Both the position numbers and the translations under genes were made by a program. Positions 1,167 through 49,815 of a stretch of DNA of 60,000 nucleotides are shown here, piece by piece; positions within the stretch are counted from its first letter, which is position 1; each line of letters opens with the position of its first letter. Under the pieces are notes generated by a model, which was not told where the DNA came from, did not search any database, and saw only the letters and a list, made by a program, of their open reading frames with translations. The stretch covers positions 29,638,001 through 29,698,000 of the forward strand of contig CM119372.1 of the NCBI GenBank assembly GCA_051294905.1. Direction: 5' to 3'. This stretch comes from Botryllus schlosseri. Taxonomy: Eukaryota.

Positions 1167-1290
1167 ATCGTGAGTAATAATTGTGATTGCTTTTCCAAAG
1201 TAATCGTAATCGTAATCGACTACTTGCTGATTTTGCTGTAATCGTAATCGCGTGATTTAGAAGTAATCGCACTCGTTTACATTCATGAAG

Positions 1291-9734: not shown

Positions 9735-9908
9735 CTTTTTTGAGCAAATGAAGCTTAAGGAAGTGGGCTGGAAGTCCTTCCTTCTTTCTCTGCATTATCA
9801 AGTCTTCCTGTCCTTTGCGTTGGGAGGAAATGAATGGAAATATATGTTCTTCCCCAGTTCATTGCCATTGGAGGCACTGCATTTATAACCAGAGCAGTAT
9901 TTCGGCAA
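9735..9908 (-). pseudogene. Degenerate THAP domain in the right arm of the THAP/YqaJ element
   Basis: Minus strand reads PKYCSGYKCSASNGNELGKNIYFHSFPPNAKDRKT**CRERRKDFQPTSLSFICS, with two in-frame stops. Confidence 0.7.
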
Positions 9909-16262: not shown

Positions 16263-17084
16263 CAGTGGTTTCCAACCTTGTTATCCTAAGTCCCCACTTC
16301 CGATTTATTCCGAGCCTTCATTCCTCACCTAAAATCTCCATATCCATATCCACCCTTTAAAGTGCTACCTCCAATAAAATTTTGCAAGACTTTGCTTAGT
16401 ATTGGTGATTGTTAAGATCCCCGGAAATGATCAGCACACAATAAAATTAACGCAGCGGTGAACTGGTAACCGTAAACGCACCTCCGTAAATATATGTATC
16501 CACCCCGGCGCGCAGCCAACAGAAAAATAGGAGGGGTTGAAAATTTTCCAAATGTTGCGGAATAGCATCAATTTACATACGTAAATGCCGAATAATATGG
16601 GTCAGATAAACTTCCTGATGTTGACGACCTCATGCGTGCGATATATACATAAACCGCCGTAAACTACACTTTCGCACAATACTACAAGAACTTGAAATAA
16701 CATAAATATGTAGACTCATTTGTAATGAGTCCGGATGTGCTATCAATTAGCGAGTCCAACATGTTCAGCAATATGAGCTCTTATTACAACGAATAAGAAT
16801 TTTTCTACCACTACGTTTCGTGACCGATGATGGTGCACAAATGAATAAAAACATTTTTGGAGTTCGTGTGTTGCTATCCAGGCGATTCTCGCTAATTGGA
16901 GGCACTGATAATATGAATCGCTGAATTGCAAATGAGCTATGAAATATTCGGTCAGCATTTCAAAACGACATTTGATAAAGGAGAATAATACTGTAAAGGT
17001 TTTTTTCAAAAGTGAGTCTATTCCCCACCAGAAATCCAGAAATTCCCTACCAGTGGGGAATTCCCCACCGTTTGGAAACCACTG
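16263..17084. mobile_element. Non-autonomous hAT/Charlie-like element (822 bp); its copy-2 counterpart (30440-45106) hosts the Polinton-like palindrome
   Basis: TIR cagtggtttccaa / ttggaaaccactg; 8-bp TSD TGCTAGAG. Confidence 0.88.
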
Positions 17085-19847
17085 TGCTAGAGATACACAG
17101 TTTTCATAAAATTGCGATTACAACTGTTACATTAAATTAAAGTTATTTTAATTTTGTAGTTTTTGCGAGGACGGGGATGCTCATAATAAAATCAATCTAT
17201 GTGACAGTAGTGACACCAACTCGCGCGCAGTGCGAAGCAAAATTTCAAGTAGCATAAATTTTACCCAAAATGAGATATTGTTTATGTTAATTTACGAAAA
17301 AAAATTTCAACTCCCTTCAAGCCTTCAGAATTCCGGACATTTAAGCATATTTCAATATTTCCTCCCGGACGCATTTTAAGCAGAGAAATTCCGCACATGT
17401 CCGGGAAATTTTGACGTATTGCAACCATAAGTCACATATCCAACCTTTTAGCGCCAACTACTAGGATGTCGAATGGTGATATGTAGCCTACGTATCGTGC
17501 GGTACGTCCCGTCTCGTCCCGTCCCAACTGTCGCCTAACAACTGCAAAAAAATTCCAAATTACGTTCCTGGTGTAGCAAACAACAAGTATTGGGATAACT
17601 ATAGGGCGTCGCGACAGCACCGGAGCGATTGTATAGCGATATTTGCTGGATTTCTTGCTACAAGTCTTTCTTTCCCGCCATGCCTTATATCAGGTTACCA
17701 ATACACGCAGAAGCTACTGCCTCGCAGCAGGATATTAATCACAACTTTGCCCGAGTTTCAAATAGTAACGTATGTATTGATATTTGGTTATGCTTAGTTA
17801 AATGCAGTTTGACCGTTGCAGCTTGACGAACATTAGGCCTATTTACGTACAGCAGACACAGATATGATATATTGTACGCGTCAAAATTGAACTTGACGAT
17901 TTCCACATCGAAGCACTAAAAATCAACGGCTGCTGATATATATCATAGCCGCATCGTTATTTGCCGCAATATCTGCATTGTAGGCCGAATTTAATGTTCA
18001 CTTTCTTATTCTCATATGGTGCTACTTTAAACGGGCACCAATTATTATTTCGCAATTCTTTACACAACATCTGGATCTGACACCGTAGTCATCCGCTTCT
18101 ACACCATGCTAGCTTGGATTGCAGCTAGAATCAGGACCGAGACAGCACTTCGTACCCGAAAAGTTGGTCTCGGGCCCCTACAGTGTGAAGTTCTCCAAAC
18201 CCCCTTTCCGACCTGGCTTTTTGCCGCAACTGGAAGACACGTTTTGAGGCATTGTGGATTCGCCGTGTATTTGTTTTTAAATCGCACCAAGTGCGAAAAA
18301 TCTTTCAAGTTCATCACTGAATTTTTTTTATAATATTGATAACTGCATATGTTACTATCCTTTTTTGATACTCTCTCAGTCCCGTGGTCAGATATACCGG
18401 TCTAGCTGGGGAAGGTGGTGTCTTCGAAAATTTAGGGCACGCTACTCATATTTATAGCATCTTCGGACGGGCCCAATTCGTGACCTCCTGTCTGCTACAT
18501 AGTCAGAAGATATTGGGATCACCCAAACGTAGCAACATATAAGAAATCTGAAATAAATCTATTTTGAGTCGCACACACAAATTATCATTTCTTCGCGGGC
18601 GCATCATTTTTCTCTGTGGGTGGCCTAGTTGGCATTTACATTGTGGGATCTGATTAGGAGCAAGACAAGATTATTCGTCACGCCCATCCAGCGCGGTTAT
18701 GGACAATGGATACATACACAAAGTTTCGGCCAAGGTCTTTTTTTGATAGCACACTTCATGAAGTTACATGTTGACCGAAGCTGCATATGTCTTGGATGTG
18801 CCGTGGCACGGTAATGGCCGGCACCGTAATGCTTATATCAATAAATAGGTAATTAAATCTTTCGAGAACACTCTAATAATTATATGTGTTGATTTACGAA
18901 ATAACTTGGTGTTGTCTTCGGGCTCTCTCCCCAACCTATCGGTAGTTTTGGTTACGACCCTGGCTAGAATGCAAGTTGTTGGATGCGTGAAATCGTCAGC
19001 TATATATAGTTGATCAATGGGTATATTAGGACGTCAACAGCAAATGACGTCATGATATCTCATCTATAAAGAAAGTTGTTCCCTCATGAGACCCTTCATC
19101 GCAATCGTGATATTGTCTTCCAATATGTGTTCAAAGATCAATTCTAAGAAAGAAAATCAATGTAATCGCGAGTAATCGTGATTACTTTTCCAATGTAATC
19201 GTAATCGTAATCGACTACTTCCAGATTTTGCTGTAATCGTAATCGTAATCGTAATCGCGAGATTCAGAAGTCATCGTAATCGCAATCGATTACATTCATG
19301 AAGTAATCACCCCATGTCTGGTCCATTGTTATTTATAACTTTGTTAAACCATGTTATTTCGCCATTCCCAGAAAAAGACTGCGCTATTGAAATGATATCA
19401 ATATCGCTGACGCGTACGAGACCATACTAAAAGAAAAATCTCTTTCGTGAGGCCCACGTCATTGCAAATTACCATTTCTTCACAGTGCGCAATTGTATCT
19501 CGGTTTCAGACTTCAGCGAGAACACTATCTGCCCTTGGCAATGTTCCCTCTAATTTTTCACGAGTCTGCGCGCTTGCGCGGTACCGTGCAGAACAGTGCG
19601 CAACGACTAAAAAAAGTCATCACTTCAGATTTTTTGTGCGCAGCTTAGATTTTCTGTGCGCAGAGACCGTTTCAACACTGCGCATTTGCGCACGTTAGAG
19701 GGAACATTGATCGTGAGTAATAATTGTGATTGCTTTTCCAAAGTAATCGTAATCGTAATCGACTACTTGCTGATTTTGCTGCAATCGTAATCGCGTGATT
19801 TAGAAGTAATCGCAATCGTTTACATTCATGAAGTAATCACCCATGTC

Positions 19848-28099: not shown

Positions 28100-30789
28100 A
28101 GCGTGGTCCAGTTGCAATCAAGCTCGAATATATTAAAGGAGGAATTTTATTTTCGTCATAATTAAGCTCAAATACAATAACGGAAGAATTTTGTTTTCGT
28201 CGTTTCGTTTGTTTTCGTATTCTATATCTCAATAAAAGTGTACCTGTCGAACTATATTGATCTTACTTTTTCACTCATATATTCACTTATTCAGCAGGAT
28301 CGCAACACTCACGCAAGTAGGCCTACCGCATTGTGACAGAGTTTGTTCTGAAAACAGACTATATCAGGTTGCTTATAGTCACCAGAGTATTTCCTAATAG
28401 TTACCAGTTGGGGGAAGCCCAAAATTTGTGTCCTACTTATCACATGTGTCGATACTGCAGTGTAAGATTTGATTTTGTTTTTACTGCGCTGAGCGTATTG
28501 AACTCAGACATTGGTATATCGTATTGGCGTCAAGCCAGAGATCTACGTGGATACTTGATAGTCGATAGTCATGCAGTTCGTGTGAGTCGTGCTCTCGATC
28601 GGTGGGCCTATAACTTTATCGTAATCCATTCTATTAGCGTTCTATTCAATGCGCTACTGTTGTGTACGCAATCGTTACAGTAAACTGCAAATAGGGCTAC
28701 ATTTAAAACAAACGGTGTTTTAAAACACTTTGTTTAAAACATGTTTTAAACAGTGTTTTAAATAAAGGCTTTTAAAAAAATTGTTTGTTTTTTTCTAGTT
28801 GTAAAATTATGCCATAATTGTGTAAATACTTCCGAAAAAACATATTGTATGAGCCTTAACAATAACCTTCCGATATTGACGACGTATATCGATATTGGAT
28901 GGTTGGAACCCTCAAAATAGTCGGTTCAACATTATTAGTGCAGATATTTCGTCAAAGGAGCTATATTTACCCTATATTTTCAATTGTCAATGTCCATCCA
29001 CTATGACGTCACACTTGAAAATTCGTGACGCCATGGCTTTTAAAAATTGGTTTTTGTTTTAAATGCAACTGCAAGTATCTACTATACACCGATGTCGTCT
29101 TCACCTCATCATAACTACAATGGTAAGTAGCAGTAAATCTAATGCAAGAGGTAAATGCAATGTAAAGGTTTTATCACGCCTTTTAAAACGTTGCGAGCCG
29201 CGCAATTTGTTTCTGTTTAATCGGAAGTATGGAGTAGAGTTGGTAGCAATCGCTCTCAAAACTCCATGAGCGCGCGCTGCCTATACAAAATCTGTGATAG
29301 GCCTTGGTTTTGTAATATATGGCCCGAGCATGGAGCAGGTATGGTCATCCCTGCTACATATCATGCAAAGCTTTGATAGTGCAGTGATAAACAAATAAGT
29401 TATTGTTATTAATTTGAAGGCATAATTTGACTGGTCCGACCCGCAAGCGTCCAAAAGCTCTGAATCCGGCCAGCGATTTAAATTGAATATATATTGAGTT
29501 TAATATAACTGGTCTAGCGTATATCGATATATAAGTTTCCTGTGGAGTAGTGACTGATCTGCGATTTGATGTTCGATGTTCAGTACGTGCGTTTCATTTC
29601 ATGCATAACCCTTACTGAAAACGTCTGGAGAGTCCAAGAAAGAATTATCGGCGAAGTCATCGATTATATTGGGAGTATAAATGATCCAGTTCTATGAAAT
29701 CAAAACCAGTTTCACGGAAGGCGATCTTGTGGCCTGACATAAAAATTGCATCATGTCTGGCAACCCAGCAGTTGTGTAAGCCCACTACTCCTTTTAGAAT
29801 TTTTTTTAAGCAAGCACAAATAGTGGATTAAATGAAGGAGATTGCAATACCATGTTGATTTAAGTTATTTTGCTTCAGTTTCTCTACTCTCAATGGGCTA
29901 ATTTCTACGTTTGCAATTATACATTCCTGGCAATTTGAGCTCCACATTACAAATGCCACTCGTGAAGAAAAATTATGCGGCCCGTGAAGAAATGCTACTG
30001 CGAGTCGGGTGCGTAGCACGAAAGAAGTTCTTTAGGTCTGATACGGTTGAGCCATTTCGAAATCTTTTGACTGTATAGCAGACGAAATGTTACGGTAAAA
30101 CAACACACAACGAATGAATTGATAACAACGAGCCCGCCAGCAGATGTTTAAGTATTAATTACGGGCACCAAATTTTTAAAGACACCAATTGATAATTTGA
30201 CAATAATATATGCAATACCAATTTTATTGACTGAATTCAGCCATGAATTTGATTTTATTCGCGCTTCGCGTGACTAGACAACGCCTGCTCCCTTACCACC
30301 GATTTCAAGGACAGTATCGTTGTGATAACGTACACGCAATGAGGTGTCTGGAGGGCTTCGTTTGGTTTATCACCCTATGGGGCGCCAATAATCAGCGTGT
30401 TGGGCGGGCTGACCAAGTGCAGTTACGGGCCTGCTAGAGCAGTGGTTTCTAACCTTGTTATCCTAAGTCCCCACTTCCGATTTATTCCGAGCCTTCATTC
30501 CTCACCTAAAATCTCCATATCCATATCCACCCTTTAAAGTGCTACCTCCAATAAAATTTTGCAAGACTTTGCTTAGTATTGGTGATTGTTACGATCCCCG
30601 GAATTGATCAGCACACAATAAAATTAACGCAGCGGTGAACTGGTAACCGTAAACGCACCTCCGTAAATATATGTATCCACCCCGGCGCGCAGCCAACAGA
30701 AAAATAGGAGGGGTTGAAAATTTTCCGAATGTTGCGGGATAGCATCAGTAGTTAGTATGATCGGTCGTGACGGCTATGGGTTTCTTATG

Positions 30790-31630
30790 GGCGCGCTGGT
30801 GATGTGCCTGGAAACTCGTGTTGGTGATGGTACCCTTTTGACCCCCCTTCCGCTCGTGATGTGCCATGTGTTCTTATGGGATCTCTGGTGATGGTACCCT
30901 TTCGGGTATAGGCTGCATCGGTGATGTGCCATGAAAACTCGTGTTGGTGATGGTACCCTTTCAGACCACCTATCGCTCATGATGTGCCATGTATTTTCAC
31001 GGGATCTCTGGTGATGTGCCATTGTTTCTTAAGGGATCTCTGGTGATGTGCCATTGGTTCTTATGGGATCTCTGGTTATGTGTCATTGTTTCTTACGCGG
31101 TCTCTGGTGATGTGCGATTGGTTCTTATGGGATCTCTGGTGATGTGCCATTGTTTCTTATGGTATCTCTGGTGATGTGTCATGTATTCTTACGGGATCTG
31201 TGGTGATGTGCCATGTGTTCTTATGGGTGCGGCCGTGAATTACCCTTTCGGGTATTGGCATCTCTCGCACGTCGTACTTTCACATGTCGTGCTTTCGCGT
31301 ATAGGTTGTGTTGGTGATTCACCATGTGTTCTTATGGGTGTGGCGGTGATTCGTACTTTCGGGTATATGCATCTCTCGACCGGTGTTGAATATGTATCAA
31401 GTAAATAGTCATGTGAATTAATCTTTGTTAATGTGTATATCGTTATTCTTATGGATGCGGTGATGATTCGTACTTTCGGGTATAGGCGGCGGCGGCATGC
31501 TAACGTGAAAACCGGGGGTGGCATGCTAATGTTTTTAGGTATACGTGCGGCGACATGCTAACAACGATAATGTGTCTGTCATGTATTCTTACGGGATCTC
31601 TGGTGATGTGCCATTGTTTCTTATGGGCGT
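30790..31630 (+). repeat. Degenerate ~32-bp tandem array (ggtgatgtgccatgtgttcttatgggatctct) in the terminal region; mirrored at ~43700-44545
   Basis: Many contiguous units in 30980-31225, with derived units on either side. Confidence 0.9.
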
Positions 31631-34600
31631 GGCGGTGATTCGTAGCCTACTTTCGAGTATAGGCATCTCTCGCGCGGTGTTGAATATGTACGAGTCACCA
31701 ACAATAACCGCACAAACGGAAACGTGGCTTGCAAGAGGATTAAGCAGTGCGTGTGACCTATAATTCGAATGACCTGCGCGCTGAATTGTTTCCGTGCAGT
31801 CGTGTGCTACTATCGATTATTACACTAGACCAGTCAGTGTGAAATAGTTTGCTAAATCTAGTAATCAGTCGCATGGTGTTACTTTAGTAATTAGTTTACC
31901 ACAGAGCCGGCGTTGCCGGTGATTCGAATACCGACAAATTTTCACTTATTTCTGACCCAACCCTAATCCTCTGTGAAGTTGACGCTTATTCAAAAAGGTG
32001 TGAAATAATTGTAAAATCCTAATCCGAAACCGATTATTTCGACTTTGGCGTAGTGTGCATTGAAATAGGATTGACAAACATGACTACTTGATTATATCAC
32101 TGCAACTCATGAATTTGAATTAATTCATCCTGGTTGTATTCGTATGCTCGGTCTTTTTTTATTCGATTGTAAAGGTTGTTACTATTCTGAAGACAAAGTA
32201 TTTACTAATCGGTGCATATACGTTTTGACTTGGACATATTATATTTTGAGTATACGAGATTTGAATGTCTGAACAATAACTGAGAAATAATTTATCACAA
32301 TTAAATCCGTATATTACAGCGTAAAAGATATTTGAATGTCAGCAACTCGGTAAGATCATAGTTACTACCACATTACCTAATTTACCCGACCAACTCGTCA
32401 TGAGCATTCCCGAAATCAATACAAACATGACTACTGACTTGAGTTAACCACAAAACAGCATCAAGTTTTAAATCCACTTGTAGCTTACGGATTATTTGAA
32501 TGCGGGTTATGTTTTGTTGTAATTGAGTGTACGGAAATAGTATTACGTCTTGACATCTTACCATCTTACGATATTCAAAGAGTCAACCACGAAAACACTG
32601 TCAAGTAAATCCGTTACCCGACCAACTCAAACAGTATCTGTACGAAAAACAGCCAAACATACACGAGTCCATACAATCACTAAAACCTAAAATCCATAAC
32701 AAGTTCGGTTGTATTCATATCCCTACACATCTTTTTTTTATTCAACTTGAAAAGTCGTTACTATTCTGTAAGATGGAGGAATTACTACGCGGTATATTCT
32801 GCAAGACAAAGAAATTACTATGCGGTATATTTTGTAAGACAAAAGTAATTACTTCTCGGTGTCGGTGACTTGGGATTAACATATGTTTTGAGTATATGAT
32901 ATTTGAATGTCTGACCAATGTAGTTAAGAATTCATTTCTTACGATCAAACGCCGGTGTTACATTGAAAGTTATCATGCTGTGAACATAAGGATTGACACA
33001 TTGATTTGACATACGTAATAGTTGATCATGACTTGATTATTAAATTATTTGCGTTAATTAGACCCGGCGTTGTGGTAAATGTTATGACAGCAACAAACTT
33101 TTCAGTACCAATGTTATTAACATATTAAGCTGTAAAACTATGTGTGTCTGAAATGTTCTTGATAGGAAAATTACTCCACCTTGGTAAAAATCACTCTGCG
33201 TATCGCGGATATCAGAAAATATTTCCAGTAACCAAGACTAAAGATGAAACGACAATATCGGAATTCTTACATTCAACAATCAGTACAATTATTAAAATCT
33301 ATCGTTTGCGATAAACAGCGCTAAAGATGTAATTATTCCAGTATTCAACATCCGATACAAAATACTTTATCATCCCGATTCACAACGGATAATTGAAACG
33401 ACTAAGTGTAGAGTCAGTATATTACAATGACACGTCGTTACTATTGAATCCAGCAATTGATACGATTTATTGTCGGGATTTGTGACAGCGCATTGAAACA
33501 TACACAACTTACAGAGTGTGAAAATATAACTTTGGGTATCGAGTACCGTTTGAAGCGGGCGATCAATACATAATTCCGTTCACACTCTCTAAGGCGTTGT
33601 GAAGTCTACAGATTTACACTTCAAGACTTTGATCAACACAAAAACAATTTGGAGTATCTTTACTGGATACATCCTATTCTACTAGACTTGAGTAATACAC
33701 AAAACTGATAGCATTAACAAAGTCGCAATAGGCGCTACACTGAAATCTACAAAATGTGTTACTATTGTTGTTAGTGATCATAAATTATCATTTGAATAAG
33801 TAATTGTAATCATAAAACCAAACTTGCGAAAGTCATTACCATAACAAAAGAATATTGTAGGTTGCTTGCTAAATGTACGCCAGAAATATTTGTAGAACGC
33901 TCACGACCAAAGAAATCGGAAATTTCCCCACATGGTCATTCGTCAACGTTTATGTTGTCACAATACTCACCCCGTAAAAGATATTACTTGTATCTGATTG
34001 AATCACCGATAATTAACTTGCTAAATCAAACCATAAGGAAATTTCACTCACTCATCGGATATTAAACAGCGTCACTTAATCGGCGTAGATCGTTTTTTCT
34101 AAATGCAAATCATACCTGGCCAACAGAAAACAATTTTCACTCACCTTGTAATGAACCCAAGTGGTGGGCCGTCGTTCAATATTTTGTCTGTGTCAAATAC
34201 TTTGCAATAAACACAATGGAGTGGTTGAGCTTTGCATCATCATGCTGTCATCTGAAAATCAAGCTTACATCCGATTTGTAACTGTATCGTTTACCTAACC
34301 GAGTTGTATGCACAGTTCGATATTTTTTGTCATTTAGTGATTGCTGAACATACCAAACGATACACATTCACCTCCGAAATACTGCGTTGATCTCAACCCC
34401 TTTTGACGTGATAATCGAAGTACATTTGTTTCGAATTCGTAATAGCCGACTATGACACGACGATTTTTGGAAAAGTTATGCTTGGAAGATTGGTTGTATA
34501 TCACGAAAAATAATTACCGCTCATATTGATACTGTTATCCCTTGTTCGGTATTTTTAAACGAGTAAAATTTATTACTTGAGTTACTCCGCTTAATGCAAA

Positions 34601-35941
34601 TGTAAACACAACCGTCTTTCAACATCACTAAGACTTCGATACAAAGTATACAATCAAACGCAACAAGTTTACTTTTGTAGGTTGTGTATGATTATCCTGC
34701 ATAACTCATTTCTTACCAAAGCCATATGAAATATATTCATGTTACACGAAAATATTCCCATGCTACTAACCTATACAATGATTGGTGTTGCTTTCAAAAT
34801 GTTTCGATACCTTAAGAACTTTATTGTCTCAATGGATGTTCATGTATCTTAATAATCAAATAGTTCAACACAGAACTAATACGAACAGAAACATCAGAGT
34901 TGTTTACACAAAAGTTTGTATGTGTACAGTATGTGAATACCGTGTGTAAGCCCAGCACAATTGTGGTATCCACCCGAGTTTAGTAAACACAATTTACGAC
35001 ACCGAGGTCGCGTCATCTTTCGTAAGACAACAAACCAAGGCTTCAGGATATGTCCATGTCATAGCAATAAATCAGCTACTCCAACAACAGAGTGCGTATG
35101 TTTCTTGTTACGGTGCTTACATCTTACACACAAATCAATCTACTTTGCTAACGAAAAGTGGTGAGTCATCATATGGTTGTCCTCACTAGTAAAACATACT
35201 ATCATACAAAATGATCGTTATAGTTTGCACACCAACGGTACATCGTACAAGTAACAAGTCTCGAGAATCCAGTTATTCAAAAAACGCGAAAGTATTTCTA
35301 CACCAAGTCGTTATGTCGACGAAAGCGTATATTGTAATATCATGATCGATTTGCATTCATTGGTCACAAACTGTCACTACTCTAAATAATTCTTTTTCAC
35401 TCAAACACAAACGCATACTTGTCACCATTCGTTTTCATCAAGCACGAGTTCAAGAAACTTACTTACTACGACATGAATTTTTATTTTTATGGTATGTAAA
35501 TAGGTAATAATTAATTCAAGTAACACTATATCAACATCATCGAGTTGTGCTAATAGATTTACATGTGGTCTTGTGGTTTTCGTCGGGGCATACAGCACGA
35601 GCTAACTGTAGACTCCTCTCTGTTGTACAGCTACTCGGTAATCGAAATGCATTAACATGTAAACAACGATCTTGTTTCATCACACCAAAAATATGTTCAC
35701 TGTCGCGATACTCTGCACAAGACGTACATAGCCTTTTCACACTCGTAATAGTATACCAACGTCAAGCAATAACATTTAACAAGACCAACGACACTGAACC
35801 CACGACGTTTACCTATGTAAAATTACCACTTTCACTTGCCAGTCCATCGTTTACCTGACTAAACATATTATTTTCCTTTGGAGATCTGACGTTTACCCAG
35901 ATTAAGAAACCATTTTCACTTGTAAATATTTTTTTCCTCGG

Positions 35942-36160
35942 CTAACAAACCTTTTTTTTACTTGGAAATATATTTTTCTCTGGGTAACAAACCTTTTTCA
36001 CTTGGAAATATATTTTTTCTCTTGGTAACAAACCTTTTTCACTTGGAAATATATTTTTTCTCTGGGTAACAAACCTTTTTCACTTGGAAATATATTTTTT
36101 CTCTGGATAACAAACCTTTTTCACTTGGAAATATATTTTTTCTCTGGTTAACAAACCTTT
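35942..36160 (+). repeat. 41-bp minisatellite (taacaaacctttttcacttggaaatatattttttctctggg); mirrored at ~39210-39390
   Basis: 5 full units in the left arm, 4 in the right arm, with degenerate flanking units. Confidence 0.92.
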
Positions 36161-37644
36161 TTCCCTGAGCAACACACCATTTTGACTTGGTGGTCGTCGT
36201 TTACCCGAGTAAAAATATCATTTTCTTTTGGAGATCCGGCGTTTACCCAGTGTAACAATACATTTTCACTTGGAAAAATACTTTTACCTATAGAGTAACT
36301 AATCATTTCTCCTGGGTAACAAACCCTTTTCGTCTGGAAAACTATCATTTGCCTGAGTACCAATACCGTTTTCACTTGGAAATAATTTTTTCCCTGGGAA
36401 ACAATACCATTTTCGTTATGAAAACTGTCAACCACACCGGACAATTTGATATTTTTGTATATTGTTACAACGGGCAGTGACAAAATATACATCAACAACG
36501 ACTCCGATACATTTGTCTAATCAAATATTCACTTGCTCTGATGCATCCCATCAAAATCATTGGTTACTCACATACAATAACAATGAGCTGTTGTACACCG
36601 AAATGCACGCTTTGGAAAATTGGACAATAGGCTGCGATAGTTCTGCGATGTCCGGGTTCGTGCTTTGGATTTTCCAGAGTCAAAATGTCTGAATAAAACA
36701 CCTCCTCGACGACGGTTGGTATGTGGATAACGGTGTTCGGAAAACGGTTGGATTTATGTCACCCATCGCGATAACAATTCCTGGTCGAGTTTTCCTCCGT
36801 CATGTTTGCTATATTGTGTCTTTATTGGTCAATGTATGTCTCGACATTCAGTTTGAAATCGGAAATGATAAAGTATGTAACCGGATCCGGATATCAGCTC
36901 TGAATCGATAAACCAATGAACAATATTCAAAGTAAACATGTTACACCTGTATTTCCACGAAAAAAATACCATCCAGACATACGTCGCGCTTGTTTGCCCA
37001 CACCAGTATACGCGCAAATGGAGGTGTGTGACATTGCATGCAATGTGTTGGTATACAAACATCGATCCACAGACATTATCATAGCCGGTAGTTTTGATGT
37101 AGATCGAATGTCACCCGATAACAATGTCATACCAATAAGCCACATTGCAATGACTCTGAGTCCGCGCAATAACATCGATATTTCGACACCGTTCACTGAT
37201 TTAGTCGATGGTTTTATTGCGTTGTAACATTACAAGATAGTCATGACCCTATCTCCAGACAGACCACCCAGACCAATTGGATACATCGGTCAATATCCAG
37301 CGTGTTATCGACACCGAAGTTTTCTGCTGAGACTGCAGCGTTCGACCAATGTGAACTATCGAAGTACGGTGCTCGAAATGATTGCGATCAGTCTTTCAGT
37401 CACGATGCATGGATGTCGCTACTCCCACATAACGACTCCAGATAAATATCGTGAACAGTGATTCTGCAAATCTGGGACTGATACTGTGATCAAATAAGGT
37501 GTGTTTCTGCGGAATGAAGACTGCAATCGTACACCGCAATAGAACACTGCCTCGTGATTTCACACCCAATCATAAAACACACTTTCGTAAGGGTCCAGTT
37601 CGTCCGGGGACATTTCAAAACGACCATCACTACAAGAAATCGGG

Positions 37645-37845
37645 GTTTCAGTTTGTCATATCGGTAACATTTTGAAACGGTATCGCGCAAAGTTATTGAC
37701 GTCGATTCAGTTGGTCATATCGGTGATATTTTGAAACGGCGTCACCACAAGGCTATTGACGTCGCTCTCAGTTAGCTGTATCGGTAGCATTTTGAAATTT
37801 TCATCACCACAAGGCTATTGACATCGATTCAGTTGGTCATGTCAA
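37645..37845. repeat. ~60-bp degenerate tandem repeat (3+ units) in the palindrome spacer
   Basis: Recurrent tcagttggtcatatcgg...attttgaaa...caaggctattgacgtcg. Confidence 0.8.
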
Positions 37846-38213
37846 TCCGTTTCACAATCTGTCGTTTTTCAAGTCCCAGCACCATAGTGTTACGACACAG
37901 ACAAGAAGCGTCGGTGGAAATAATAAAACACGGAAGGCACACTTTGGTGTTATTTGACATGGGGTTTACACCAGACGAACCTCACATTCGAGCGATGTAT
38001 TTGAACGGTGATTGTATTATTGATGTCCAGGCAAAAGAAATGTATCGATTTATTGGTTTCGTACATATCCAACAAAAATCTGGGTATATGATTGTGCATG
38101 GTTCGCATATTCGACTGTGAGCGCTCTATTGCTGTATAGTTCACTTTCACCGTCGTGCGAATAACCCATGTTACGGTTCCATGTTTGTGTGTCTGTATGT
38201 CATGCTTCAGATT

Positions 38214-41200
38214 GACTCAGAGTCATTGCAATGTGGCTTATTGGTATGACATTGTTATCGGGTGACATTCGATCTACATCAAAACTACCGGCTATGATAA
38301 TGTCTGTGGATCGATGTTTGTATACCAACACATTGCATGCAATGTCACACACCTCCATTTGCGCGTATACTGGTGTGGGCAAACAAGCGCGACGTATGTC
38401 TGGATGGTATTTTTTTCGTGGAAATACAGGTGTAACATGTTTACTTTGAATATTGTTCATTGGTTTATCGATTCAGAGTTGATATCCGGATCCGGTTACA
38501 TACTTTATCATTTCCGATTTCAAACTGAATGTCGAGACATACATTGACCAATAAAGACACAATATAGCAAACATGACGGAGGAAAACTCGACCAGGAATT
38601 GTTATCGCGATGGGTGACATAAATCCAACCGTTTTCCGAACACCGTTATCCACATACCAACCGTCGTCGAGGAGGTGTTTTATTCAGACATTTTGACTCT
38701 GGAAAATCCAAAGCACGAACCCGGACATCGCAGAACTATCGCAGCCTATTGTCCAATTTTCCAAAGCGTGCATTTCGGTGTACAACAGCTCATTGTTATT
38801 GTATGTGAGTAACCAATGATTTTGATGGGATGCATCAGAGCAAGTGAATATTTGATTAGACAAATGTATCGGAGTCGTTGTTGATGTATATTTTGTCACT
38901 GCCCGTTGTAACAATATACAAAAATATCAAATTGTCCGGTGTGGTTGACAGTTTTCATAACGAAAATGGTATTGTTACCCAGGGAAAAAATTATTTCCAA
39001 GTGAAAACGGTATTGGTACTCAGGCAAATGATAGTTTTCCAGACGAAAAGGGTTTGTTACCCAGGAGAAATGATTAGTTACTCTAGGTAAAAGTATTTTT
39101 CCAAGTGAAAATGTATTGTTACACTGGGTAAACGCCGGATCTCCAAAAGAAAATGATATTTTACTCGGGTAAACGACGACCACCAAGTCAAAATGGTGTG
39201 TTGCTCAGGGAAAAAGGTTTGTTAACCAGAGAAAAAATATATTTCCAAGTGAAAAAGGTTTGTTAACCAGAGAAAAAATATATTTCCAAGTGAAAAAGGT
39301 TTGTTACCCAGAGAAAAAATATATTTCCAAGTGAAAAAGGTTTGTTACCCAGAGAAAAATATATTTCCAAGTAAAAAAAGGTTTGTTAGCCGAGGAAAAA
39401 AATATTTACAAGTGAAAATGGTTTCTTAATCTGGGTAAACGTCAGATCTCCAAAGGAAAATAATATGTTTAGTCAGGTAAACGATGGACTGGCAAGTGAA
39501 AGTGGTAATTTTACATAGGTAAACGTCGTGGGTTCAGTGTCGTTGGTCTTGTTAAATGTTATTGTTTGACGTTGGTATACTATTACGAGTGTGAAAAGGC
39601 TATGTACGTCTTGTGCAGAGTATCGCGACAGTGAACATATTTTTGGTGTGATGAAACAAGATCGTTGTTTACATGTTAATGCATTTCGATTACCGAGTAG
39701 CTGTACAACAGAGAGGAGTCTACAGTTAGCTCGTGCTGTATGCCCCGACGAAAACCACAAGACCACATGTAAATCTATTAGCACAACTCGATGATGTTGA
39801 TATAGTGTTACTTGAATTAATTATTACCTATTTACATACCATAAAAATAAAAATTCATGTCGTAGTAAGTAAGTTTCTTGAACTCGTGCTTGATGAAAAC
39901 GAATGGTGACAAGTATGCGTTTGTGTTTGAGTGAAAAAGAATTATTTAGAGTAGTGACAGTTTGTGACCAATGAATGCAAATCGATCATGATATTACAAT
40001 ATACGCTTTCGTCGACATAACGACTTGGTGTAGAAATACTTTCGCGTTTTTTGAATAACTGGATTCTCGAGACTTGTTACTTGTACGATGTACCGTTGGT
40101 GTGCAAACTATAACGATCATTTTGTATGATAGTATGTTTTACTAGTGAGGACAACCATATGATGACTCACCACTTTTCGTTAGCAAAGTAGATTGATTTG
40201 TGTGTAAGATGTAAGCACCGTAACAAGAAACATACGCACTCTGTTGTTGGAGTAGCTGATTTATTGCTATGACATGGACATATCCTGAAGCCTTGGTTTG
40301 TTGTCTTACGAAAGATGACGCGACCTCGGTGTCGTAAATTGTGTTTACTAAACTCGGGTGGATACCACAATTGTGCTGGGCTTACACACGGTATTCACAT
40401 ACTGTACACATACAAACTTTTGTGTAAACAACTCTGATGTTTCTGTTCGTATTAGTTCTGAGTTGAACTATTTGATTATTAAGATACATGAACATCCATT
40501 GAGACAATAAAGTTCTTAAGGTATCGAAACATTTTGAAAGCAACACCAATCATTGTATAGGTTAGTAGCATGGGAATATTTTCGTGTAACATGAATATAT
40601 TTCATATGGCTTTGGTAAGAAATGAGTTATGCAGGATAATCATACACAACCTACAAAAGTAAACTTGTTGCGTTTGATTGTATACTTTGTATCGAAGTCT
40701 TTGTGATGTTGAAAGACGGTTGTGTTTACATTTGCATTAAGCGGAGTAACTCAAGTAATAAATTTTACTCGTTTGAAAATACCGAACAAGGGATAACAGT
40801 ATCAATATGAGCGGTAATTATTTTTCGTGATATACAACCAATCTTCCAAGCATAACTTTTCCAAAAATCGTCGTGTCATAGTCGGCTGTTACGAATTCGA
40901 AACAAATGTACTTCGATTATCACGTCAAAAGGGGTTGAGATCAACGCAGTATTTCGGAGGTGAATGTGTATCGTTTGGTATGTTCAGCAATCACTAAATG
41001 ACAAAAAATATCGAACTGTGCATACAACTCGGTTAGGTAAACGATACAGTTACAAATCGGATGTAAGCTTGATTTTCAGATGACAGCATGATGATGCAAA
41101 GCTCAACCACTCCATTGTGTTTATTGCAAAGTATTTGACACAGACAAAATATTGAATGACGGCCCACCACTTGGGTTCATTACAAGGTGAGTGAAAATTG

Positions 41201-44200
41201 TTTTCTGTTGGCCAGGTATGATTTGCATTTAGAAAAAACGATCTACGCCGATTAAGTGACGCTGTTTAATATCCGATGAGTGAGTGAAATTTCCTTATGG
41301 TTTGATTTAGCAAGTTAATTATCGGTGATTCAATCAGATACAAGTAATATCTTTTACGGGGTGAGTATTGTGACAACATAAACTTTGACGAATGACCATG
41401 TGGGGAAATTTCCGATTTCTTTGGTCGTGAGCGTTCTACAAATATTTCTGGCGTACATTTAGCAAGCAACCTACAATATTCTTTTGTTATGGTAATGACT
41501 TTCGCAAGTTTGGTTTTATGATTACAATTACTTATTCAAATGATAATTTATGATCACTAACAACAATAGTAACACATTTTGTAGATTTCAGTGTAGCGCC
41601 TATTGCGACTTTGTTAATGCTATGAGTTTTGTGTATTACTCAAGTCTAGTAGAATAGGATGTATCCAGTAAAGATACTCCAAATTGTTTTTGTGTTGATC
41701 AAAGTCTTGAAGTGTAAATCTGTAGACTTCACAACGCCTTAGAGAGTGTGAACGGAATTATGTATTGATCGCCCGCTTCAAACGGTACTCGATACCCAAA
41801 GTTATATTTTCACACTCTGTAAGTTGTGTATGTTTCAATGCGCTGTCACAAATCCCGACAATAAATCGTATCAATTGCTGGATTCAATAGTAACGACGTG
41901 TCATTGTAATATACTGACTCTACACTTAGTCGTTTCAATTATCCGTTGTGAATCGGGATGATAAAGTATTTTGTATCGGATGTTGAATACTGGAATAATT
42001 ACATCTTTAGCGCTGTTTATCGCAAACGATAGATTTTAATAATTGTACTGATTGTTGAATGTAAGAATTCCGATATTGTCGTTTCATCTTTAGTCTTGGT
42101 TACTGGAAATATTTTCTGATATCCGCGATACGCAGAGTGATTTTTACCAAGGTGGAGTAATTTTCCTATCAAGAACATTTCAGACACACATAGTTTTACA
42201 GCTTAATATGTTAATAACATTGGTACTGAAAAGTTTGTTGCTGTCATAACATTTACCACAACGCCGGGTCTAATTAACGCAAATAATTTAATAATCAAGT
42301 CATGATCAACTATTACGTATGTCAAATCAATGTGTCAATCCTTATGTTCACAGCATGATAACTTTCAATGTAACACCGGCGTTTGATCGTAAGAAATGAA
42401 TTCTTAACTACATTGGTCAGACATTCAAATATCATATACTCAAAACATATGTTAATCCCAAGTCACCGACACCGAGAAGTAATTACTTTTGTCTTACAAA
42501 ATATACCGCATAGTAATTTCTTTGTCTTGCAGAATATACCGCGTAGTAATTCCTCCATCTTACAGAATAGTAACGACTTTTCAAGTTGAATAAAAAAAAG
42601 ATGTGTAGGGATATGAATACAACCGAACTTGTTATGGATTTTAGGTTTTAGTGATTGTATGGACTCGTGTATGTTTGGCTGTTTTTCGTACAGATACTGT
42701 TTGAGTTGGTCGGGTAACGGATTTACTTGACAGTGTTTTCGTGGTTGACTCTTTGAATATCGTAAGATGGTAAGATGTCAAGACGTAATACTATTTCCGT
42801 ACACTCAATTACAACAAAACATAACCCGCATTCAAATAATCCGTAAGCTACAAGTGGATTTAAAACTTGATGCTGTTTTGTGGTTAACTCAAGTCAGTAG
42901 TCATGTTTGTATTGATTTCGGGAATGCTCATGACGAGTTGGTCGGGTAAATTAGGTAATGTGGTAGTAACTATGATCTTACCGAGTTGCTGACATTCAAA
43001 TATCTTTTACGCTGTAATATACGGATTTAATTGTGATAAATTATTTCTCAGTTATTGTTCAGACATTCAAATCTCGTATACTCAAAATATAATATGTCCA
43101 AGTCAAAACGTATATGCACCGATTAGTAAATACTTTGTCTTCAGAATAGTAACAACCTTTACAATCGAATAAAAAAAGACCGAGCATACGAATACAACCA
43201 GGATGAATTAATTCAAATTCATGAGTTGCAGTGATATAATCAAGTAGTCATGTTTGTCAATCCTATTTCAATGCACACTACGCCAAAGTCGAAATAATCG
43301 GTTTCGGATTAGGATTTTACAATTATTTCACACCTTTTTGAATAAGCGTCAACTTCACAGAGGATTAGGGTTGGGTCAGAAATAAGTGAAAATTTGTCGG
43401 TATTCGAATCACCGGCAACGCCGGCTCTGTGGTAAACTAATTACTAAAGTAACACCATGCGACTGATTACTAGATTTAGCAAACTATTTCACACTGACTG
43501 GTCTAGTGTAATAATCGATAGTAGCACACGACTGCACGGAAACAATTCAGCGCGCAGGTCATTCGAAATATAGGTCACACGCACTGCTTAATCCTCTTGC
43601 AAGCCACGTTTCCGTTTGTGCGGTTATTGTTGGTGACTCGTACATATTCAACACCGCGCGAGAGATGCCTATACTCGAAAGTAGGCTACGAATCACCGCC
43701 ACGCCCATAAGAAACAATGGCACATCACCAGAGATCCCGTAAGAATACATGACAGACACATTATCGTTGTTAGCATGTCGCCGCACGTATACCTAAAAAC
43801 ATTAGCATGCCACCCCCGGTTTTCACGTTAGCATGCCGCCGCCGCCTATACCCGAAAGTACGAATCATCACCGCATCCATAAGAATAACGATATACACAT
43901 TAACAAAGATTAATTCACATGACTATTTACTTGATACATATTCAACACCGGTCGAGAGATGCATATACCCGAAAGTACGAATCACCGCCACACCCATAAG
44001 AACACATGGTGAATCACCAACACAACCTATACGCGAAAGCACGACATGTGAAAGTACGACGTGCGAGAGATGCCAATACCCGAAAGGGTAATTCACGGCC
44101 GCACCCATAAGAACACATGGCACATCACCACAGATCCCGTAAGAATACATGACACATCACCAGAGATACCATAAGAAACAATGGCACATCACCAGAGATC

Positions 44201-44586
44201 CCATAAGAACCAATCGCACATCACCAGAGACCGCGTAAGAAACAATGACACATAACCAGAGATCCCATAAGAACCAATGGCACATCACCAGAGATCCCTT
44301 AAGAAACAATGGCACATCACCAGAGATCCCGTGAAAATACATGGCACATCATGAGCGATAGGTGGTCTGAAAGGGTACCATCACCAACACGAGTTTTCAT
44401 GGCACATCACCGATGCAGCCTATACCCGAAAGGGTACCATCACCAGAGATCCCATAAGAACACATGGCACATCACGAGCGGAAGGGGGGGTCAAAAGGGT
44501 ACCATCACCAACACGAGTTTCCAGGCACATCACCAGCGCGCCCATAAGAAACCCATAGCCCGTCACGACCGATCATACTAACTACT
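38214..44586 (-). repeat. Right arm of the giant inverted repeat
   Basis: Reverse complement of 30747-37162. Confidence 0.97.
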
Positions 44587-46779
44587 AGCATCAATTTACA
44601 TACTTAAATGCCGAACAATATAGGTCAGATAAACTTCCTGATGTTGACGACCTCATGCGTGCGATATATACATAAGCCGCCGTAAACTACACTTTCGCAC
44701 AATACTACAAGAACTTGAAATAACATAAATATGTAATCTCATTTGTAATGAGTCAGGATGTGCTATCAATTAGCGAGTCCAACATGTTCAGCAATATGAG
44801 CTCTTATTACAACGAATCAGAATTTTTCTACCACTACGTTTCGTGACCGATGATGGTGCACAAATGAATAAAAACATTTCTGGAGATCGTGTGTCGCTAT
44901 CCAGGCGATTCTCGCTAATTGGAGGCACTGATAATATGAATCGCTGAGTTGCAAATGAGCTGTGAAATATTCGGTCAGCATTTCAAAACGACATTTGATA
45001 AAGGAGAATAATACTGTAAAGGTTTTTTCAAAAGTGAGTCTATTCCCCACCAGAAATCCAGAAATTCCCTACCAGTGGGGAATTCCCCACCGTTTGGGAA
45101 CCACTGTGCTGGAGATATACAGTTTTCCTAAAATTGCGATTACAACTGTTACATTAAATTAAAGTTATTTTAATTTTGTACTTTTTGCGAGTACGGGGGT
45201 GCTCATAATAAAATCAATATATGTGACAGTAGTGACACCAACTCGCGCGCAGTGCGAAGCAAAATTTCAAGTAGCATAAATTTTACCCAAAATGAGATAT
45301 TGTTTATGTTAATTTACGAAAAAAAATTCAACTCCCTTCAAGCCTTCAAAATTCCGGACATTTAAGCATATTTCAGTATTTCCTCCCGGACGCATTTTAA
45401 GCAGGGAAATTCCGCACATGTCCGGGTAATTTTGACGTATTGCAACCATAAGTCACATATGCAACATTTTAGTGCCAACTACTAGGATGTCGAATGGTGC
45501 TATGTAGCCTACGTATCGTGCGGTACGTCCCGTCCCGTCCTAACTATTGCCAAACCAGTGCAAAAAATTTCGAAACTACATTCCTTGTGTAGCAAACAAC
45601 AAGTATTGAGATAACTAGGGCGTCGCGACAGCACCGGAGCGATTGTTTAGCGATATTTGCTGGATTGCTTGCTACAAGTCTTTCTTTCGCGCTGCGCGCG
45701 ATCTCCTGTGTATGTTCAATGTTTATGTTTATACATCTCCAGTGCCACAGACAATAAGCGACACACCCCGAAAAGTGGTTACGCATGAACATGACTCCCT
45801 GCATTTTCGAAGACACCACCTACATCAGCTCCGTCGGTATATCTGATCACGTGGGCTGAGAGAGGACTAAAAATAATAGTAATTTAAACAAGAACATATG
45901 TTATTGACGAAATTAATTCATAAACTAGAAGAATTTCGCGCTTCGCGCGTCTAACATCTACTGCTCACTGATATTTCATTGCAATAATACTTGAGATTTT
46001 GGTGCATTAGTCAAAGAAACGTCTTGCGATTCTGGTGCATAAGTCAAAGAAACGTCTTGCGGTCGTAGTTCGGCCAACCTATTCCGGCTCGTTCGTAAAT
46101 CCCGTGATACCGTACCTCGTTCGCTACGGAATAAGGTGTGATGCACTCTACAGACGCACGCTACGTAAGAAGCTACTACATATCCACAATTGAAGGTAAC
46201 TATTGTAGGAAAATACATAACAGCTCCATCAGTAACGAATGCATTTCAACTGCACTACATGCTTGCCGTGTCAACTCCAAGATTCCTACGACATCGCCGG
46301 TTTGCAAAGTTGATAGGACATTGTATCATTGCGTTTCGATTGTCGGATTATAATTTTAGCCATCAACGAGTGAGGCAAATTCATTGCGCTTCATCAGGTT
46401 TTTGTTTCTCTGCGCTGTCATAGTACGTAACACAGTCGGATCTCACATTCCTTGGGGATTTTGAGGGACTTCTGGTGCTCTGAGATTATTAATATTCGGA
46501 TTGTCGGAATTAGTGGGACAATAGCATTCAATTAATATCAGTAATTATAAATTCTGAGCTGTTAATGATGAACAGCGTTATCGCTCGACTATGTGATTGC
46601 GTGATTTTATGTGTAAAATTATTCAAAATTAGTCATTTATGAACAACTATAGAAAATACCAATATTCAGCAAAGGTTTTTCATTATTCTTTTATTTCAGC
46701 AATTTTCTTTAATTCGTCCTAACGTCGCGTAAGGCTCTGCCGCACTTGCATCCACTAAACGCACATCACATCTTACGTG

Positions 46780-47215
46780 TGTTTTGATGAGTCACGTTTT
46801 TAGTTGATCAGTTTGTATGTTTCAGTGAATCAGTTTAATTCAACTGTCCTTTATTTGCGTTCCGTTATTTTCCTCGACACCTCTTAATTGTTCTGTTTGA
46901 TTGATGATTGGTTAATTTAATTGTTGCGCCGTCCGTTCTCGTTTACCTTTATATTGCTCTGTTGCTGTTATTTCTTTTCTCCATTCAACTGTTATCGGAC
47001 GAGCAAGCAATCTTGCGAATCTCGCCATTCACGTATCTATAATTCGGAACAAGCTATTCCGCATTCCACGTTTTGGACTGCTTGTATTTGCGAACAGAAG
47101 AGATTTGAGATACGCAACGCTTGCTTAGTACCCATTGCCAGATTTAGCGTGTAGCAGACAGGATCCCGACACCTGATAAAGTGCCACTCATTGAATTCAG
47201 TGCCGCGTCGGAACA
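46780..47215 (+). repeat. 5' LTR (436 bp)
   Basis: tgttttgatgagtcacg...cgtcggaaca, direct repeat of 49379-49815. Confidence 0.95.
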
Positions 47216-47351
47216 ATTCGCAAGAAGCCAATTAAAGCCGATATCTTTGAGACTTGGTATTAGTCTAGATTCAAGACTCTGCTGCCCTACGAAGATCTAT
47301 CTGCTTTGCACTAAATCTGCGAATATTTATATAGTTTTCATACGTTGACTA

Positions 47352-49351
47352 ATGTCTTTTGTGAAGTCTCCGGTGAATTCCCGCAAGTCTCCAACCTTGG
47401 CACCGACTTGGAAGCCATTAGCCAAGATGACGGTCGATGATTTACGATCCGAATTACAAGAACTTGGCGCGGCTACAAGTGGGAGCAAAGTTGTATTGAC
47501 GGAGCGATTAAGGAAAATCCGCGATTCCGGCAAACCTTCACAAAAGAAAGAACTGAAGTCCTCTCCATTGAGCACCACCGAGAGTCCATCTGAACTAGTT
47601 ATAATTTTTCAGATGATGAAGCATCAGCAAGATCTCGATCGTCAGCAGCAGCAATTAGATCGTGAAGCTGATCGCCAGCAGCAGAAATTAGACCGTTAAG
47701 CTGCCAACCTCAAATTTCAGTTGCAGCTCGAAGAGCTCGAGCTGAAGCATATGTCCAAGACCGTGAAGAATCCGAAAGACGGTTTCAACAGCAACTGGAA
47801 GAAATTCGCCAGAAGTCATTAGAAGACCGACTCAGCTTGTGCGAAATCTTGAAAGACGCTGTCAAGAAGTCCGTCAACCACCCATCGGCAAGCAACGGAG
47901 ATCCATGTCTACCTGATGTTGTTATAAGGAAATTCAGACGCATGAATGCCGAAGTGGTCGAGTCTTTGCAAGCGCTTGAAAATAAATATAAGTATTCCAC
48001 CTCTGTCGAAGAAATCAACGTCTTCATACGGTCAGTAGAAATATCACTGACCGATCTCAAGACATTCGTGGATGCAGAAATCGTTCAGCTTGACGATGGT
48101 GATGTCAAGTCCGAAATCATTGATGGCATGAGAAGCTCGAAAGAAATTTATTTTGTACACATTCCTCTTGCCAAATCCAAGTCTTCATCGCTGAAAGCTG
48201 CCGAAGAAGCGGAAAAAGCCGCTGGATCCCTCCCGAGTGGAATAGTGCCGCCTACATTCAACGGCGATATTTTGACTTTTCCTGCATTTTGGGAGTCGCT
48301 CGAGCCATTGGTTCACAAAAATCCAAAGGTCAGTCCGTTTTACAAAATCTCATATTTAAAGGCAGCTCCTAAAGGTTCGTCATCCGGCCTTCTCAATGGT
48401 TTCCCCTCGGCGGCAGTGAATTATGAGCCTGCAGTAGAAGCCGTTCTTAAAAGGTACGGAAAGAAGCAAGCGATCGTGAGAAATCACATCGAAGACTTAC
48501 TGCAAGGTCAGAAAGTAGAATTTAAGATCGACAAAGTCAGACAACTTCTCGATGCCGCTACTGCTAAAAGGGCCATTTTATCGCAGTATGACGTCTCTTG
48601 GGACCAACTCTTTACACAGGTACTAGAGTCCCAGTTGCCCGGTAAGTTGCATGAGCGTTGGATCAGAAGAACTAGCCCCTTGATCGAAGCCGATAACATT
48701 CCTGATTCTGATCTCCTGTTTGAGTTTCTAACAACCGAGTTGGCGACGATGGAATCGTTGCGTAAGTCGCAGAATGGGCGTCGCCCTGTTGACGTACGTG
48801 AAAAGCCCCCTCATAAAGATGAACTGGCTAGTGTTGGTACCCATAAACCTGACAATTCATTTTCTGCCCAGTCTCTCGTGATTCAATCCGTCCAGCTATC
48901 ATGCACCTACTGCTCAAAACCTCATTTATTGAAAGATTGTTTTAAATTTCTGAAATTAAAACGCGCCCAGCGATTGGCTGACTTGGTTATGAAGCCTGGT
49001 AAAGTGTGTTTTAGATGCTTATCCCCGAAAGGACACAAATAGCACCCGAAGCATTTTCATCAATGTAAGGAGCGTTGTTCCGTCACTTGCTGTGGGAAAC
49101 CCCACCACAAATTGTTACACGTTTCTGCGGAACCATTGATTGACGCTAAGTGTATGGTATCAACTGTTGATGTTTCCACCCCTGCGCTTCGGGATTTCGA
49201 CATAGACACAATATTGCCTACTGCTTTGGGACGAATCCACTACAGAGGTGAAGTTAAAACAGCTGCGTCAAAGGACGTTTCGTTGAAACCTAATCCATGG
49301 ATTTCGTTGAACGACAAGTTGGAAAGATTAGCTGATAGAAGAATCTGTTGA
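47352..49351 (+). pseudogene. Disrupted BEL/Pao gag: SAP domain, Q/E-rich coiled coil, DUF1759-like region, three zinc knuckles, protease start
   Basis: SAP-like MTVDDLRSELQELGAATSGSKVVLTERL; PTFNGDILTFPAFWESL...KISYLK; knuckles CTYC..H....C, CFRCL, C...CGKPHHKLLH; ILPTA. Stops at 47697 and 49040, frameshift near 47755. Confidence 0.88.
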
Positions 49352-49378
49352 CCGACCATAGTCGGTCAAGTGGGGGAG

Positions 49379-49815
49379 TGTTTTGACGAGTCACGTTTTT
49401 AGTTGATCAGTTTCTATGTTTCAGTGAATCAGTTTAATTCAACTGTCCTTTATTTGCGTTCCGTTATTTTCCTCGACACCTCTTAATTGTTCTGTTTGAT
49501 TGATGATTGGTAAATTTAATTGTTGCGCCGTCCGTTCTCGTTTACCTTTATATTGCTCTGTTGCTGTTATTTCTTTTCTCCATTCAACTGTTATCGGACG
49601 AGCAAGCAATCTTGCGAATCTCGCCATTCACGTATCTATAATTCGGAACAAGCTATTCCGCATTCTACGTTTTGGACTGCTTGTATTTGCGAACAGAAGA
49701 GATTTTGAGATACGCAACGCTTGCTTAGTACCCATTGCCAGATTTAGCGTGCAGCAGACAGGATCTCGACACCTGATAAAGTGCCACTCATTGAATTCAG
49801 TGCCGCGTCGGAACA
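49379..49815 (+). repeat. 3' LTR (437 bp)
   Basis: Direct repeat of 46780-47215, followed by TSD ACGTG. Confidence 0.95.

Follow-up and report, generated by a model that had tools for sequence, protein, structure and literature searches.

Polintons and related palindromic systems

Polintons, also called Mavericks, are thought to be integrated viruses, and to our knowledge there are hardly any observations of how they replicate or form particles in animals. Terminal short repeats are the basis of the slide-back step in protein-primed initiation. Here we describe a 13,840-bp palindromic element in a 60,000-nucleotide stretch of Botryllus schlosseri DNA (assembly GCA_051294905.1, contig CM119372.1, positions 29,638,001 to 29,698,000 of the forward strand; hereafter the window, with positions counted from its first letter). 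From its sequence features, the element very probably represents a recent insertion of a high-copy, non-autonomous, palindromic family that is derived from, or dependent on, Polinton/Maverick transposons, the autonomous members of which are referred to below as helpers. A literature search returned no description of palindromic non-autonomous Polintons.

Two systems outside the Polintons show a related layout. Foldback transposons, such as Drosophila FB and Galileo, resemble the element in consisting mostly of long, internally repetitive inverted repeats, in the predominance of non-autonomous copies and in the concerted evolution of the arms; the element differs from them in its 6-bp target-site duplication (7-9 bp in FB and Galileo), in its Polinton ends and Polinton partner, and in arms that are several times longer. 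Copy-back or snap-back defective genomes and adenovirus panhandle repair provide examples of palindromic, helper-dependent genomes and of a strand folding on itself. A palindrome bounded by identical, functional ends is common to these genomes and to the element, and helper dependence and a self-folding single strand would be further likenesses; nevertheless, every infection generates its defective genomes afresh, whereas the palindromic family is heritable, diversified and chromosomal, and carries its own gene.

Intact vertebrate Mavericks, as described in PMC8097293, display (i) (AGT)2...(ACT)2 or (AG)3...(CT)3 ends, (ii) 6-bp duplications, (iii) a length of 12.7-24.6 kb, and (iv) inverted repeats of 46-1,447 bp. 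The element matches this description in its 6-bp duplication, its (AGT)2...(ACT)2 ends, the presence of terminal inverted repeats (TIRs) and its length; judged by the same values, its ends are therefore canonical whereas its 6.4-kb inverted repeats are not. It further differs in the absence of the protein-primed DNA polymerase (pPolB), the integrase and any other helper frame, and in the presence of a small gene absent from the helpers. Overlong repeats have a parallel in butterflies, in which autonomous Polintons carry 2-kb TIRs holding hexon and adenain, according to bioRxiv 10.1101/2025.02.07.637071. Those repeats duplicate internal sequence, as do the arms of C9a, a subfamily of the present family with a helper gene on both arms; the butterfly elements are autonomous with coding repeats, whereas the inverted repeats of the window copy occupy 92% of its length and are non-coding. 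The Tlr1 elements, sometimes regarded as non-autonomous polintons (PMC5499653), are likewise Polinton relatives without the defining polymerase, but they contain many genes, are now classed as polinton-like viruses and are not palindromes. Finally, under the published replication model a Polinton single strand would fold into a 'racket' by pairing of its inverted repeats (Kapitonov and Jurka 2006, as cited in PMC4196379), and with the arms described here such a racket would be a 6.4-kb hairpin.

Architecture of the element

The element, its target site and its internal features are located in the window as follows.

30747-44586, no strand assigned: whole element, 13,840 bp
30741-30746, no strand assigned: left target-site duplication, AGCATC
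44587-44592, no strand assigned: right target-site duplication, AGCATC
16564-16569, no strand assigned: AGCATC, unoccupied target site in the tandem-duplication copy that lacks the element
30747-37162, + strand: left arm, 6,416 nt
38214-44586, - strand: right arm, 6,373 nt
37163-38213, + strand: unique spacer, 1,051 bp, homologous and with the same boundaries in other copies
30747-31046, + strand: terminal 300 bp, opening with (AGT)2 and sharing 94% identity with the C10b helper TIR
44287-44586, - strand: mirror terminal 300 bp
30798-31612, + strand: seven GGTGATGTGCC motifs in a single orientation
43719-44534, - strand: mirror set of seven GGTGATGTGCC motifs
35903-36163, + strand: 41-bp tandem array, 6.4 units
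37647-37840, + strand: 59-bp tandem repeat, 3.2 units, within the variable part of the spacer
37839-38120, + strand: conserved small frame, 93 codons and stop, no known family

The element starts at 30747 with AGTAGTTAGTATG and finishes at 44586 with CATACTAACTACT; its AGTAGT...ACTACT termini are bordered on either side by a perfect 6-bp duplication (AGCATC). It sits in the second copy of a tandem duplication of the host sequence (window 1-18545 and 18546 onward, with long blocks 96.7-98.7% identical), and a single AGCATC is found at 16564-16569 between the same flanks as the filled site. The global alignment of the two arms discloses 12 mismatches and six indels (1, 1, 1, 41, 1, and 2 nt), corresponding to ~99.8% identity, the 41-nt indel being one unit of the array at 35903-36163. 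The termini, the duplication, the empty site and the two near-identical ~6.4-kb arms around a 1,051-bp spacer had all been reported in an initial annotation of this DNA, and each is present as it described. Since the arms diverge by ~0.2% and the copies of the host duplication by 1.3-3.3%, the comparison indicates that the insertion is much younger than the duplication.

The outer part of each arm is distinctive. The GGTGATGTGCC motif occurs seven times per arm, in one orientation and always within the outer 870 bp, where 0.14 occurrences are expected in the whole window; the set overlaps in part a 32-bp tandem array at 30980-31265. In addition, the terminal 300 bp are the best-conserved section of the arm between copies (90-96%).

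The initial annotation had also described the element as gene-less, with no open reading frame over ~120 aa and with the genes of a Polinton lost. The longest stop-to-stop frame is indeed 122 aa (22 frames of at least 80 aa in the element), and neither pPolB nor the rve integrase is matched in the element by tblastn with 47 helper frames or by Pfam. When 31 arm and spacer frames were searched against Pfam, no hit fell below E 0.06 or came close to a curated cut-off, and there was no match to capsid, packaging ATPase or protease genes; none of the arm frames of at least 50 aa is open in most of the copies compared. "Gene-less" is nonetheless too strong a term, given the conserved 93-aa frame of the spacer at 37839-38120 (+).

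A palindromic family inherited across the genome

The exact terminal 21-mer of the end subtype of this copy is found 195 times in forward and 204 times in reverse orientation in the genome, compared with 0 and 0 for the control. A genome search with the terminal 300 bp, in which 40 of 1,671 first-look candidates were scored, yielded 40 full-length or near-full-length places with 90-100% identity, forming 15 inward-facing pairs, ten of which were examined as complete sequences. All ten display AGTAGT...ACTACT ends flanked by 6-bp duplications, perfect in nine and with one mismatch in the other, and these duplications differ in sequence and in site from one element to the next. Near-complete palindromes account for eight of the ten, with an arm identity of 98.5-99.9%; the arm blocks reach 5.8-6.4 kb in six of them, one contains three shorter blocks, and those of a 7.6-kb element are shorter still. 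Alternative arm identities obtained for C15, C5, C7b, and C10c were rejected in favor of these values, being inflated by off-diagonal matches between tandem repeats. The remaining two are a partly palindromic, complex element of 23.9 kb and the 17.4-kb C10b. The 41 end pairs among the first 100 places listed have a median length of 13.5 kb, with 27 of them at 12.8-15.8 kb, a mode close to the length of the helper. The packaging constraint on size suggested in the initial annotation would be compatible with this mode.

Three side observations concern the variety of these copies. The 23.9-kb element (G000 C7:27823761-27847679; L037-L039) bears the family ends and three additional frames (229, 286, and 301 aa), all missing from the helper and probably brought in by nested insertions. 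The number of terminal AGT units varies by copy, with (AGT)3 in C9a, C3, C10a, and C7a and (AGT)2 in the others. The 6-8 nt that follow these units occur as a few discrete variants, common to palindromes and Polintons.

Alignments of arms and spacer between copies give 72-95% identity, and the spacer boundaries are the same in 12 of 13 centers; the thirteenth is C9a, in which the spacer has diverged and the arm interiors are just 73-81% like those of the window copy. Because the arms, the spacer and the spacer boundaries are homologous across the family, the alignments indicate that the palindrome and its spacer are inherited family-wide, and that they were not formed anew at the window site or in the window copy. 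The individual snap-back event put forward in the initial annotation therefore does not hold.

The same comparison bears on whether the palindrome formed at this site once an ordinary insertion had occurred, or whether it is an assembly artefact, an account that we consider extremely improbable. Long palindromes are difficult to assemble; on the other hand, the architecture and its homologous spacer recur at all 12 other centers that aligned, and pairs of ends spaced by ~13.5 kb are frequent and have individual duplications. Short contigs from one DNA run cover each bin of the spacer, though no single piece spans it. An inversion after integration at this locus, which the initial annotation had held in reserve as a competing origin, is ruled out by the many palindromic copies that lie at different sites with different duplications.

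The two arms of any one copy agree at 98.5-99.9%, against differences of 5-28% from copy to copy, so that hundreds of between-lineage differences are common to both arms of a copy; from this pattern, the two arms are judged to evolve in concert. The size of the family can be set at no fewer than 150 copies from matches to the spacer protein, with ~200 of one end subtype, and the total may be higher given 1,188 first-look candidates for the spacer protein. At 13.5 kb per copy, the family occupies megabases of the genome.

Polinton partners and shared ends

The terminal 300 bp had been proposed in the initial annotation as a probe for autonomous Polintons with the same ends and for other palindromic copies with different 6-bp duplications; besides the many palindromes described above, the search recovered C10b, an element of 17.4 kb with a 756-bp TIR, long frames and ends in common with the window element. 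A 1,082-aa frame of C10b matches the protein-primed polymerase family PF03175 (E 6.3e-07), and a 359-aa frame contains an rve integrase core (E 6.7e-16) and a chromodomain. Having pPolB and rve, C10b is, on sequence grounds, an autonomous Polinton by the gene definition in PMC5499653. Its pPolB has at least 43 long matches in the genome, from the scoring of 43 among 356 candidates, and in many of them a frame of ~1,300 aa is open. The second Polinton compared, C5p, measures 16.0 kb; its inverted repeat is 439 bp long, its target-site duplication is ACCGTA, and its interior is ~96% like that of C10b. As a side observation, C5p (G000 C5:728137-744095; L064:138 to L065:6595) is flanked on both sides by family-arm sequence in the same orientation, and is thus a Polinton nested in its own hitch-hiker.

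The assignment of the ends to Polintons/Mavericks in the initial annotation is borne out by the terminal motif and 6-bp duplications, which are as in PMC8097293, and by the same ends on an element with pPolB and rve. The window arm is 94% identical to C10b over the first 300 bp and matches it beyond that solely through the repeated subterminal motif, GGTGATGTGCC being present three times in the C10b TIR. These shared ends weigh on a further proposal, according to which the element belongs to the foldback transposons of a different superfamily, of FB, Galileo/P or MULE type, and has ends that only look Polinton-like. Its composition, mostly inverted repeat with internal 32-bp and 41-bp tandem arrays, is that of foldback elements; nevertheless, 6-bp duplications together with the (AGT)2 motif are the signature of Mavericks, the terminal 300 bp match at 94% the TIR of an element with pPolB and rve, a transposase was not found in any copy examined, and the sole autonomous partner found is a Polinton, which makes this proposal very improbable.

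Compared to the ends, the interior of the arms is a different matter. Beyond roughly 0.3-0.9 kb, no DNA or protein similarity to C10b or C5p was detected, and neither tblastx nor tblastn with the 47 helper frames (at least 80 aa each) gave a match inside the element. The helper comparison covers these two autonomous Polintons.

One subfamily, C9a, departs from this pattern. Each of its two arms includes a 788-bp stretch with 95% identity to the sequence immediately internal to the C5p inverted repeat, and in these stretches (L031:1199-1816 (-); mirror in L032) lies an open 206-aa copy, 92% identical, of a 217-aa helper gene. In the helper, this gene (L041:7209-7859) adjoins the inverted repeat; its product has no Pfam or PDB match, and the C9a copy reads toward the end on both arms. 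The likeness of C9a to one end of the helper reaches ~1.6 kb, compared with ~300 bp for the window copy. Since the C9a arms hold both the TIR-adjacent 788 bp and the gene copy, the sequences indicate that palindromes and Polintons share or exchange more than bare ends, and the helper-gene piece fits either ancestry from a Polinton end or exchange.

The case of C9a bears on a true snap-back (copy-back) of one end of an autonomous Polinton, with the arms as decayed Polinton sequence and the origin ancestral to the family, an origin that we rate as possible but somewhat unlikely. The ends of the element equal the helper TIR, its length is near that of the helper, and the duplicated TIR-adjacent piece on both C9a arms, with its gene copy, is what a one-end copy-back predicts. 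The window copy beyond ~0.9 kb is, nevertheless, unlike either helper in DNA or protein, and its unique spacer and own gene are not helper sequence. Moreover, the gene piece of C9a has a 90-95% likeness to helpers of the present day, whereas the C9a arm interiors are only 73-81% like those of the window copy, which points to a recent exchange more than to an old remnant. A de novo origin without a lineage of its own does not agree with an architecture and spacer inherited in a diversified family. The statement that one Polinton end was copied back is thus not shown for the window copy, the interior of which is unlike C10b and C5p beyond 0.3-0.9 kb. The part of the initial annotation that stands is a Polinton-ended, non-autonomous element for which movement in trans is the most likely reading, with ends common to the helper.

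The spacer-encoded protein

The spacer frame is intact in 12 of the 16 non-autonomous copies examined, with a product of 91-93 aa; the other four comprise one with a premature stop, one cut short by the arm, and the 7.6-kb and complex 23.9-kb elements, which have none. Across 11 aligned copies there are zero indels over 273 nt, the pairwise ratio of nonsynonymous to synonymous substitution rates (dN/dS) has a median of 0.48, and the three codon positions contain 18/20/29 variable sites. The pooled ratio of nonsynonymous to synonymous polymorphism (pN/pS) is 0.56, compared with 0.90-0.93 in four other frames. Compared with the diverged C9a subfamily, the frame has 70% nucleotide identity and neither stop nor indel, with dN/dS of 0.36 and differences by codon position of 31/15/35. 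In the genome, the best 150 of 1,188 candidate matches to the spacer protein are all full length with 84-100% identity, and six of these 150 contain an extra stop. This pattern of substitution indicates that the spacer encodes a protein of 91-93 aa under purifying selection, which we read as the element's own factor. The frame is in neither of the two helpers.

Public protein sets contain one relative at 83% identity and one at 64%, the latter of 91 aa, of the same length; a 947-aa repetitive protein (E 4.7e-05 over 20 residues) was set aside as spurious. The spacer protein matched no family in Pfam, a profile search of solved structures gave no match at E up to 1, and the protein atlas returned no usable match. 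AlphaFold2 models of 13 spacer-protein sequences display all-beta strands with a mean predicted local distance difference test score of 41.7, too weak for a fold search. Among viral contigs, neither a relative of the spacer protein nor the exact terminal 21-mer was found. With regard to expression, a bulk RNA run, of which ~6% was sampled, placed just 20 reads on the spacer, with a likeness of 92% and with 19 of them fitting only in part; none of the listed records that hold the spacer is recorded as RNA, and two runs presumed to be RNA contain short contigs that are equally compatible with DNA.

Nucleotide diversity is 0.081 in the spacer frame, 0.058 in the first 300 nt of the spacer and 0.014-0.034 at the inner arm ends. 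Because the latter two are more conserved than the frame, their sequence suggests that the region of spacer and inner arms is also a cis-acting center.

Proposed mode of propagation

The element has the ends and the duplication length of an autonomous element, lacks the enzymes and is found in multiple copies at different sites, all of which characterize a non-autonomous element; from these features, it was most likely moved in trans. The cis parts of the helper are retained, namely the (AGT)2 termini, the TIR-like 300 bp and the repeated subterminal GGTGATGTGCC motifs, and its genes are absent. The integrase of autonomous Polintons of the same genome, composed of rve and chromodomain, would insert the element in trans and generate the 6-bp duplication, and the protein-primed polymerase of the helper would probably copy it. 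The displaced single strand could then fold back on itself as a racket or panhandle with a 6.4-kb stem, in which each round would allow one arm to correct the other or to act as its template. Such self-folding during propagation is our preferred, albeit tentative, explanation for the identity of the arms; gene conversion in the chromosome is the alternative, and the sequence alone does not choose between fold-back templating and conversion in place.

Several points weigh against the interpretation of the family as Polinton-derived or Polinton-dependent, with a protein-coding spacer. Mobilization, replication and packaging are all deduced from shared ends, and the palindromic structure is supported by recurrence at many loci. 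The match to the C10b TIR is confined to roughly the first 300 bp, the C5p end matches the window element over the first 16 nt only, and the arm interior could derive from a Polinton clade outside C10b and C5p. Regarding the spacer protein, the mirror antisense frame has an equally low pooled pN/pS (0.53), and the 150 scored genome matches, as the best of 1,188 candidates, are biased to intact copies.

A bolder interpretation regards the palindromes as true satellites of animal polintoviruses, replicated by the helper polymerase via a self-annealed hairpin strand, by which arm identity would be maintained, and held at ~13.5 kb by the capsid, with the spacer protein redirecting helper replication or packaging. 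We consider this unlikely; if true, animals would have their own equivalent of parasites that exploit other parasites, of virophage- or transpoviron-like kind. As a Polinton-derived or Polinton-dependent lineage, the palindromic family could act as a natural reporter for recognition by the helper machinery, because it combines helper ends only, a helper-like length, identical halves and its own conserved gene, and it would mark the cis-acting ends as the 300 bp and the repeated GGTGATGTGCC motif. The long perfect palindromes of the family are, in addition, places where assembly errors and chromosome fragility are likely.

Other insertions in the window

An Rfam search of the window gave no match. 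The first copy of the tandem duplication contains ~4.05 kb, at 5132-9178, found solely in that copy, with a 1,229-aa frame at 5391-9080 (-) that includes a reverse-transcriptase domain (RVT_1, E 3.3e-30); this stretch is therefore assigned, from its sequence, to a non-LTR (long terminal repeat) retrotransposon inserted after the duplication. With the retrotransposon in the first copy and the palindrome in the second, each duplicate thus received a different transposon. Downstream of the palindrome, a 456-aa frame at 47672-49042 (+) matches DUF1759 (E 4.5e-19) and is flanked by 300-bp direct repeats, 46779-47078 and 49378-49677, which are 2,599 bp apart and 99% alike, and the region 46779-49677 is probably a short LTR-type element.

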